Shown here in pieces: positions 23-605 of a stretch of DNA of 605 nt (position 1 is the first letter of the stretch; each line of letters begins with the position of its first letter). The stretch lies in the sequence record KM389308.1. One strand, written 5' to 3'. Both the position numbers and the translations under genes were made by a program. Under the pieces are notes generated by a model, which worked only from the letters and a program-made list of their open reading frames with translations, ran no database searches and was not told where the DNA came from. The DNA is from a phage.

Positions 23-286
23 ATGCGCATCAGCAACATCGAATGGCTGAAGAAACGGATCGAGTTCATCAGGAAGCTCGGAAAACAGACCGCACGACAG
101 AGACAGATCATTGACCTGCTCGACAACGAGGACAGACTCACAGAACAGGAACGCAAACTTCTCCACGTACTGGCAACAGCCGAAAAAAACGACTTACAGG
201 CACAGGAGAGCGAACGAAAACAGGCGATCCAGAAACGAATCGAGGGGAAGAAACAACGACGGGAACGCAATCACCGGCTCTTCTAG
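23..286 (+). CDS. Hypothetical small basic, predicted all-helical protein (87 aa from first ATG). May instead be the C-terminal part of a longer protein starting upstream of the window, for example the last gene of a mob/accessory operon reading toward oriV.
   Basis: Uninterrupted frame from ATG at 23 to TAG at 284-286; the same frame has no stop back to nt 2. AGGGAG at 7-12 lies 10 nt upstream of the ATG. The coding strand is purine-rich and T-poor. The product is rich in K/R/E/Q with amphipathic-helix periodicity (e.g. IEWLKKRIEFIRKL) and a very basic C-terminus (KRIEGKKQRRERNHRLF). No similarity to the Rop sequence (MTKQEKTALNMARFIRSQ...) that I can see. Function is not assignable from sequence alone. 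Confidence 0.6.
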   Translation: MRISNIEWLKKRIEFIRKLGKQTARQRQIIDLLDNEDRLTEQERKLLHVLATAEKNDLQAQESERKQAIQKRIEGKKQRRERNHRLF

Positions 287-340
287 CAGCGGGGCTACTG
301 ATCGAAGCAGGACTGGTGGACACAAAAACAGGCGAGCTAT

Positions 341-380
341 GCTATAAAAAAGATATGATATTACAAAGACTTAAACCCAT
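341..380. other. AT-rich intergenic block between the ORF and the replicon-homologous segment
   Basis: Direct count: 10 G/C in the 40 nt gctataaaaaagatatgatattacaaagacttaaacccat, against roughly 50-60% GC in the flanks. Contains A6 and TATA-like runs. No convincing -35/-10 pair with correct spacing on either strand. Confidence 0.5.
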
Positions 381-412
381 TGAGCACGATCTAGACACAT
401 GCCCAAACCCAG

Positions 413-605
413 ACGCGTAAGTGTTCCCGTTCACGTTCCGGTGCCCTGGTGCTTCCTCGCTCATTCGCTCGCTACGCTCGGTCATGAGACTGCGGCGAGC
501 ACTACCACCTCAATCATGCGGTAAGCCGCACCATTGCTGGGCTGAGAGGAGAAAACCGCCGGAAAGCCCGCTGCTCAAAAAGACGCCGAAAGGCGCTGTT
601 ATCTG
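413..605. other. ColE1/pMB1-family plasmid replicon segment: region immediately downstream of oriV, truncated by the window edge (oriV, RNA II and RNA I expected beyond nt 605, RNA II on the minus strand)
   Basis: By-eye alignment to the recalled pBR322/pUC top strand (cttcctcgctcactgactcgctgcgctcggtcgttcggctgcggcgagcggtatcagctcactcaaaggcggtaatacgg...). Window 451-463 gcttcctcgctca matches 13/13; the next 20 nt match about 16/20; ctgcggcgagc is identical; tgcggtaa and the ggaaag...caaaag...aaagg pattern are retained. Further left, gcgtaag (415-421) also matches. Orientation is the pBR322 top strand, i.e. antisense to RNA II, so a fork from oriV would enter from the right. Confidence 0.75.
451..540. 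other. Putative primosome assembly site (PriA/factor Y n-prime-type pas) homolog, with stem-loops at 476-500 and 511-536
   Basis: Stem gctcg (476-480) pairs with cgagc (496-500) around a 15-nt loop. The recalled pBR322 homolog has cgctcg / 15-nt loop / cgagcg at the same place, so the stem is conserved while the loop sequence differs. A second imperfect hairpin is caat-ca-tgcgg-taag-ccgca-cc-attg (511-536). Assignment as pas rests on my recollection that the pBR322 L-strand factor Y site maps about 150 bp downstream of oriV. Confidence 0.4.

Follow-up and report, generated by a model that had tools for sequence, protein, structure and literature searches.

A ColE2-type replication region, very probably, at the right end of a 605-nucleotide window, and its hairpin shared with ColE1- and F-type plasmids

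We analysed a 605-nucleotide stretch of DNA (sequence record KM389308.1; hereafter the window) and found that positions 413-605 are very probably the cis-acting replication region of a mobilisable plasmid of the ColE2 family (PlasmidFinder type Col156). The region runs opposite to rep transcription, and in it a Rep primase encoded to the right would act on the minus strand, DNA polymerase I (Pol I) would travel leftwards and PriA would act at 502-449. The first-pass annotation of the window had instead proposed a ColE1-family replicon with RNA I and RNA II to the right, and thereby assigned a familiar hairpin to the wrong replicon family. Our own comparisons show how far the sequences agree, to which family the rep gene of the relatives belongs, that no RNA I is found, and that the hairpin is conserved and covaries; the position of the primer, the direction of synthesis and the dependence on PriA we infer from the literature on ColE2-P9 and ColE1. 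The features of the window, each with the evidence on which it was placed, are as follows.

23-286, plus strand: first 87 codons of a gene for a TraD-like relaxosome accessory protein, which has 132 aa in relatives; ORF list and alignment to pLH85-a-D
283-420, plus strand: out-of-frame remainder of that gene with its conserved C-terminal TraD-like domain (LAAGLLIEAGLVDTKTG...), stop codon TAA at 418-420; translation and alignment
413-516, no strand: stretch similar to the region downstream of the ColE1 origin; nhmmer (L006 1310-1417, E = 1.4e-18), BLAST and local alignments
449-502, minus strand: long hairpin of the ssiA type, a putative primosome assembly site (PriA- or n'-type ssi); invariant block, consensus structure and homology to ColE1 ssiA
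512-537, minus strand: imperfect hairpin CAATCATGCGG-TAAG-CCGCACCATTG between pas and ori; minimum-free-energy and centroid single-stranded DNA folds of both strands
578-596, minus strand: terminator-like hairpin GCGCC-TTTC-GGCGT plus T-run, in the rep sense, abutting the origin core; terminator scan
592-605, minus strand: right-hand end of a ColE2-type oriV core; identity at 14 of 14 positions to the 3' end of the ColE2-P9 minimal origin

The full 605-base window was searched by megablast against 72,556 plasmid records and matched 597 of them, with few exceptions small mobilisable plasmids from the genera Escherichia, Salmonella, Shigella and Klebsiella. The best match, the E. coli plasmid pLH85-a-D (NZ_CP100490.1; 5,328 bp), is 99.7% identical across the entire window, which corresponds to the reverse complement of its positions 218-823. 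Next came plasmids of ~5.1 kb at 95-96%, pIGJC156 (NC_009781) among them, and many plasmids of 3.7-5.5 kb matched at 92.8%. pIGJC156, the PlasmidFinder reference for Col156, has the same gene order (mobA, oriT, traD-like gene, pas, ori, rep), an order shared by the 3.7-5.5-kb 'pCol156' plasmids of E. coli, Salmonella and Klebsiella, and together these plasmids are 93-96% identical to the window over its whole length. A check by replicon typing had been proposed along with the ColE1 assignment; in PLSDB, pLH85-a-D, pIGJC156 and the other records opened are typed as replicon Col156 with a MOBQ relaxase. Plasmids of the MOBQ4_2/Col156 group have been described as ColE2-like, their 32-bp ori following rep on its downstream side (PMC6856555). 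A match to the window was present in 554 of 5,426 complete E. coli genomes, placing Col156/ColE2-like plasmids in about one in ten, and every one of the 663 matching places lay on a plasmid (0 chromosomal), which bears out the earlier view that the DNA comes from a natural plasmid lineage and not from a cloning vector.

The reverse complement of 592-605, CAGATAACAGCGCC, agrees at every position with the 3'-terminal 14 nt of the ColE2-P9 minimal origin aaaatgagaccagataagccttatcagataacagcgcc (taken from the supplement of the DIAL-strain paper and written in the rep sense), and contains the 'R' repeat CAGATAA at 599-605. Since these last 14 nt are origin core, the window ends inside oriV; an origin had rightly been placed near the right edge, but the edge does not fall 30-60 bp short of it. 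In relatives, the match to the origin runs on past the point at which the window ends (…AAGCCT(A)TATCAGATAACAGCGCC), and ColE2-P9, ColE3-CA38 and ColE9-J share the origin core ...TATCAGATAACAGCGC(C) just downstream of rep. A 15-mer from this region, ATCAGATAACAGCGC, was found once in each of five ColE2-like loci, directly downstream of rep, and in none of four ColE1-type loci. ColE2-type origins are described as ~32 bp in length and directly downstream of rep (PMC6856555), with two CAGATAA repeats and a Rep primer site (PMC3632715), the sequence of the Rep primer being AGA (PMC5304414). Within the minimal origin the AGA triplet occurs on the rep-sense (minus) strand only and nowhere on the complement. 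Because of this asymmetry, the leading strand is most likely of minus polarity and synthesised from the right edge leftwards through the window, as the first-pass annotation also had it, and the primer 5'-AGA-3' probably has its template, TCT, at T602-C603-T604 in the R repeat.

The window stops inside the origin, and rep and the left half of the origin are known from relatives, where a rep gene lies directly to the right of the window-equivalent (6 of 6 relatives inspected). In pLH85-a-D, a minus-strand ORF of 339 aa terminates ~75 bp past the window end. Its product carries the Pfam domains Replicase PF03090 (2.7e-43) and PriCT_1 and a C-terminal HTH, is 93% identical to the Rep of ColE9-J over aa 1-261, and matches the solved Rep structure 3VW4 at 6e-42, which is taken to be the DNA-binding domain of ColE2-P9 Rep, judging from ~90% identity to the matched stretch. 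This domain architecture is shared with the Rep proteins of ColE2-P9, ColE3-CA38 and ColE9-J, plasmids of class C theta replication with a Rep primase and a 32-bp ori. At the same place, pIGJC156, p12-6334.2, pZ1323CEC0001-6 and JE86-ST05_p5 have a gene annotated as 'replication initiation protein', the type of which is not given in the records. The Rfam model of RNA I (RF00106) gave no match in pLH85-a-D or pIGJC156 at E<=1, nor in ColE9-J, for which the gathering threshold was applied; the same scan detected RNA I in two true ColE1 plasmids, which served as our ColE1-type comparison: pRHB33-C07_5 (which also has Rop; RNA I, 70 bits) and pRHBSTW-00542_5 (RNA I, 106 bits).

A strong stem-loop was also observed on the minus strand in the leader of the rep mRNA, just before the rep start (L001, from pLH85-a-D, 843-966; L002, from pIGJC156, 4070-4193). 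It gave a weak match resembling PK-repBA (E = 0.02-0.1, under the gathering score) and is probably the target of an antisense RNA I of the ColE2 type; the Rfam scan of pLH85-a-D and pIGJC156 returned no match to a ColE2 RNA I family.

The C-terminal DNA-binding part of the pLH85-a-D Rep (aa 262-339) is unrelated to that of ColE9-J, and so presumably marks an origin-specificity (IncB) type of its own. The left half of the pLH85-a-D origin (L001 ~5114-5135; ACATGAACAAGCCTATAT) likewise differs from ColE9-J and has no clean 'L' CAGATAA repeat, unlike the ColE2-P9/ColE9-J type. Compared at the DNA level, the 3' end of rep and the left half of ori in pIGJC156 also fail to align with pLH85-a-D, and the rep/ori variant of the window matches that of pLH85-a-D, not that of pIGJC156. 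These differences suggest a coupled exchange of the determinants of origin specificity (Rep C-terminus plus ori left half), and this divergence, which a deposited plasmid already shows, agrees with the mosaicism and the several specificity types known in the group. Members of the pLH85-a-D family further differ from the ColE2/ColE9-J type in having no colicin operon and a different mobilisation accessory gene.

We then compared the window with the ColE1-type plasmids by local alignment and with a profile HMM built from six ColE2-like plasmids (nhmmer), whose matches to ColE1 plasmids reached E = 1e-13 to 1e-18. Window 432-500 agrees with pRHB33-C07_5 (L006 1332-1400) at 57 of 69 positions (local score 78; shuffle mean 18, sd 2), the core at 451-500 agrees with both ColE1-type plasmids at 43-44 of 50 positions (86-88%), and local alignment scores against these plasmids were 70-79 where shuffles averaged ~18 (sd 2-3). 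The profile alignment covers ~413-516, so that the left boundary of 413 given by the first-pass annotation was accurate, and its claim of homology to the ori-downstream region of pMB1/pBR322 holds for 413-516 (E = 1e-18) but not for 517-605; the identity it put at three-quarters over 413-605 is in fact ~83-88% over ~70 nt, with nothing beyond. To the right of ~516 similarity to ColE1 is absent: the nhmmer envelope stops there, short of the origin, and local scores of 511-605 against the ColE1-type plasmids equal the shuffle mean. The ColE1 RNA/DNA switch (…GGCGTTTTTCCATAGGCTCC…, ~115-170 nt from ssiA) is present in L006 and has no significant similarity in window 517-605, and forcing 501-605 globally onto the 120 nt before the switch gave z~2.3, which we judged not significant. 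When 413-605 was searched by distant BLAST, more than 5,000 records matched, only 595 of them with a query cover of at least 80%; the remaining records share a piece of ~50-75 nt only.

These comparisons bear on whether the window could border a ColE1-type replicon, with RNA II (minus strand) and RNA I (plus strand) to the right and an RNase H/Pol I origin 30-60 bp past the window end. Window 413-516 is indeed homologous to the ssiA region that follows ColE1 origins, and in true ColE1 plasmids with the block, RNA I does lie ~500-550 bp rightwards on the plus strand, with rop leftwards. We nevertheless give such a replicon almost no credence, since in the relatives that space is filled by a ColE2-type rep gene and origin and yields no RNA I, the similarity is gone at 517-605, and the block also lies beside sop/ccd in F-type plasmids. 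Occurring as it does in ColE2-like and F-type plasmids, the ColE1-like block is not diagnostic of a ColE1 replicon. The first-pass annotation had itself named a lack of RNA I/RNA II-like sequence in the right-hand flank as grounds for giving up the ColE1 reading; no RNA I is found in pLH85-a-D or pIGJC156 at E<=1, nor in ColE9-J at the gathering score, so the reading falls on its own terms and is already refuted for all sequenced relatives.

It is also conceivable, though in our judgement quite improbable, that the ori-to-pas interval of ColE1 and ColE2 plasmids is a single ancestral 'Pol I entry plus PriA loading' cassette onto which either RNA II/RNase H or a Rep primase was grafted, with a homology that reaches very faintly to the start site. 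Hints in this direction are a GC hairpin and T-run beside the start site in both systems and the global z~2.3.

Returning to the ColE2-family replication region, we found that 451-500 forms a run of 50 consecutive positions unchanged in an alignment of six ColE2-like plasmids. JE86_p5 is only 76.5% identical over 413-605 overall, yet its 451-500 block is identical. The arrangement around the block is equally constant: read in the rep sense, all six plasmids (6 of 6) show the rep stop codon, the ori core, TTTTTGAGC, the small hairpin (537-512), the invariant block (500-451) and the stop codon of the mobilisation accessory gene in this order. To define the structure, nine copies of the block from three lineages (ColE2-, ColE1- and F-type), a small sample, were aligned and folded with RNAalifold, giving a single long hairpin of 15 pairs (window 502-449) in which 498-502 pairs with 449-453 as the outer stem. 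On this consensus 98.5% of cells are paired and 4 pairs show compensatory changes; neither the covariation score nor the paired fraction was attained by any of the shuffles (0 of 500), and sliding the partners by 1-3 columns lowered the pairing to 18-47%. The outer stem itself changes in a compensatory manner, reading CCGCT/AGCGG in ColE1 plasmids versus GTGCT/AGCAC in the window and F. Single-sequence folds of 425-550 as single-stranded DNA had energies within those of shuffles on both strands (z = -1.25 and -0.66), so that the argument for the hairpin is a purely comparative one. Covariation by itself is blind to strand; two G·T pairs of the minus strand, which are A·C mismatches on the plus strand, point slightly to the minus strand as the one that folds.

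By sequence, 449-502 is homologous to ssiA, the n'-primosome assembly site of ColE1, and would by analogy serve PriA. We take the ColE1 block compared here to be ssiA partly on the strength of the factor-Y site of pBR322. Nomura et al. (1991) are said to have mapped ssi sequences experimentally in ColE2, F, R100 and R6K. The ssiA of ColE1/pMB1/pBR322 is a homologous hairpin of ~54 nt in the same orientation relative to the travel of the leading strand, and the distance from block to start is similar, ~115-170 nt in pRHB33-C07_5 (switch sequence GGCGTTTTTCCATAGG) versus ~100-155 nt in the window (presumed start at 602-604). What differs is the origin that feeds it: in ColE1, RNA II processed by RNase H under the control of RNA I and Rop; in the window family, a Rep primase with a 3-nt primer. 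In ColE1, the displaced strand exposes the site during extension by Pol I, and binding of PriA leads to assembly of the primosome (PMC3167613, PMC2831885). Strong mosaicism has been described for plasmids of the present kind (PMC3364232), and the ColE1-like block might on that account be a functionless scar of recombination between Col plasmids. We attach minimal probability to this, as the block keeps its 50 consecutive positions in six ColE2-like plasmids despite variable neighbours and compensatory changes preserve its stem across the ColE1-, ColE2- and F-type copies.

For the ColE2-family region, the most probable course of events can be laid out as follows. Rep, a primase of the archaeo-eukaryotic type whose gene follows directly on the right, on the minus strand, would bind the ~32-38-bp origin that has its right end at 592-605 and synthesise a primer of three nucleotides, ppApGpA, with the plus strand as template, probably at 604-602. 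Pol I would elongate the primer leftwards into the window and, after ~100-155 nt, the displaced minus strand would expose the 54-nt hairpin 502-449. PriA would recognise the hairpin and give rise to a primosome (PriB, DnaT, DnaC-DnaB, DnaG), which would begin lagging-strand synthesis and hand over to Pol III. Where exactly the primer is made, and how far the ColE2 ssi has been established by experiment, are assumptions that we draw partly from secondary citations. Initiation in ColE2-P9 is dependent on Rep and Pol I, independent of DnaG, and uses the primer ppApGpA (PMC4980987, PMC4538821). Every element of this scheme is already known: the class-C theta replicon of ColE2/ColE3/ColE9, its Col156 relatives, and the PriA-type ssi shared with ColE1 and F. 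Both the Col156/ColE2-like replicon and the ssi elements of ColE2 were reportedly described decades ago.

Copies of the block also occur in F-type plasmids of 93 and 176 kb, beside sopAB and ccd-resD. In these phiX174-type ssi blocks the invariant core (GCTCGCCGCAG...TGAGCGAGGAAGCACCAGGG) and the outer stem are as in the window, while the inner hairpin differs (GGGCGAAGCCC) and the replicon context (RepFIA/FIB) is unrelated. The pas core of ~65 nt was seen in pTA142 (IncFIA/FIB; L012 2501-2565) between IS1203 and a site-specific integrase/ccdBA, and in pC50_002 (IncFIB/FII; L013 2501-2565) ~650 bp downstream of partition genes. A further copy, in the 3.4-kb plasmid pL9-5 (L004 771-833), is nearer to the ColE2 variant (…GTGAGACTGCGG…); this plasmid has no Rfam RNA I at the gathering score and no replicon typed. 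With matches to the pas piece in more than 5,000 plasmid records, the piece is a widely shared, portable module. The ~50-nt ssiA/pas hairpin known from pBR322/pUC is thus common to ColE1, ColE2 and F-type replicons, and reveals a nearby origin and the direction of the fork, not the kind of replicon.

The hairpin has the mobilisation module (mobA, oriT, traD-like gene) on one side and the replicon on the other, and its homologues in F-type plasmids belong to conjugative elements, so we also considered whether 449-502 acts mainly in conjugation, priming the complementary strand on transferred single-stranded DNA in the recipient; ssi elements in conjugative plasmids have been discussed in these terms (PMC11541004). 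We regard this as very unlikely for the window, where the position of the block (~100-155 nt) and its orientation to the origin match those of ColE1 ssiA. The relaxase gene of MOBQ plasmids usually enters the recipient last, and if it does so here the transferred strand is the plus strand, which is not the one expected to be active. Moreover, the block stays with ori-rep when the mobilisation module is swapped (ColE9-J versus the window family).

Two smaller hairpins lie between the pas block and the origin core of the ColE2-type region. For the one at 512-537, the alignment shows GCAATGGT to be invariant and the GCGG/CCGC stem to be retained in most ColE2-like plasmids; in ColE9-J the pas block and the GCAATGGT hairpin are kept between ori and the mobilisation gene as in the window. 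The nhmmer profile found no counterpart of this hairpin in ColE1 plasmids, and it was seen only in the ColE2-like family, where it may belong to the ColE2 ssi or act as a signal of its own. The hairpin at 578-596 was one of 2 sites in a terminator scan in which 1.1 were expected, a weak result when taken alone. It is kept in pLH85-a-D, pIGJC156, pZ1323-6 and JE86_p5 and may end the rep transcript. As an extra GC hairpin and T-run after the core it sets the pLH85-a-D family apart from ColE9-J, in which it is cleanly deleted; ColE9-J being without it, the hairpin is dispensable for origin function. An Rfam scan of the window at E<=10 returned isrQ (15 bits) and a human lncRNA, both far below the gathering score and dismissed as chance, the isrQ match being explained by the GC hairpin at 583-596. 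Scanning 400-605 for repeats and promoters gave one trivial palindrome (MluI-like, ACGCGT) and no sigma-70-like sites.

To the left of the replication region, the ORF at 23-286 had been likened to rop. It is indeed transcribed toward the origin, but it is a frameshifted gene of the TraD family without a match to Rop: in a base-by-base alignment with pLH85-a-D one T is missing from a TTT (281-282), as a result of which the frame meets a TAG at 284-286. The intact gene, a CDS of 399 bp (132 aa), is found in pLH85-a-D, pIGJC156, p12-6334.2 and the pCol156 of Ec-RL2-1X, and pZ1323CEC0001-6 and JE86_p5 have a 148-aa homologue in its place. Pfam and NCBIfam gave no match, Rop included, for either the 87-aa or the 132-aa form. 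Identity is 31-32% to the 148-aa 'conjugal transfer protein TraD' at the same position in other Col156 plasmids, and this homologue matches Pfam TraD PF06412 (E = 1.5e-8) exactly over the C-terminal portion that is lost in the window. The traD-like gene adjoins, in divergent orientation and across the presumed oriT, the gene for a MobA/MobL relaxase, a layout also known for the accessory genes of relaxases in related MOBQ plasmids (PMC6856555). The deletion at 281-282 may be genuine, which would make the gene a pseudogene, or may stem from a sequencing error in a homopolymer. We considered programmed frameshifting at 278-286 (CUC UUC UAG) and rejected it, there being no slippery heptamer and no RF2-like context, and the frame being intact in every relative compared there (pLH85-a-D by its sequence, four others by their annotated 399-bp CDS).

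The mobilisation accessory genes of the window family and ColE9-J are unrelated (9% identity), and similarity between the two begins abruptly at CTTACGC, in the region of the stop codon of the accessory gene (window ~413-420; L003 ~6700-6730). From the sequences compared, this boundary resembles a point at which the replicon and the mobilisation module were joined by recombination.
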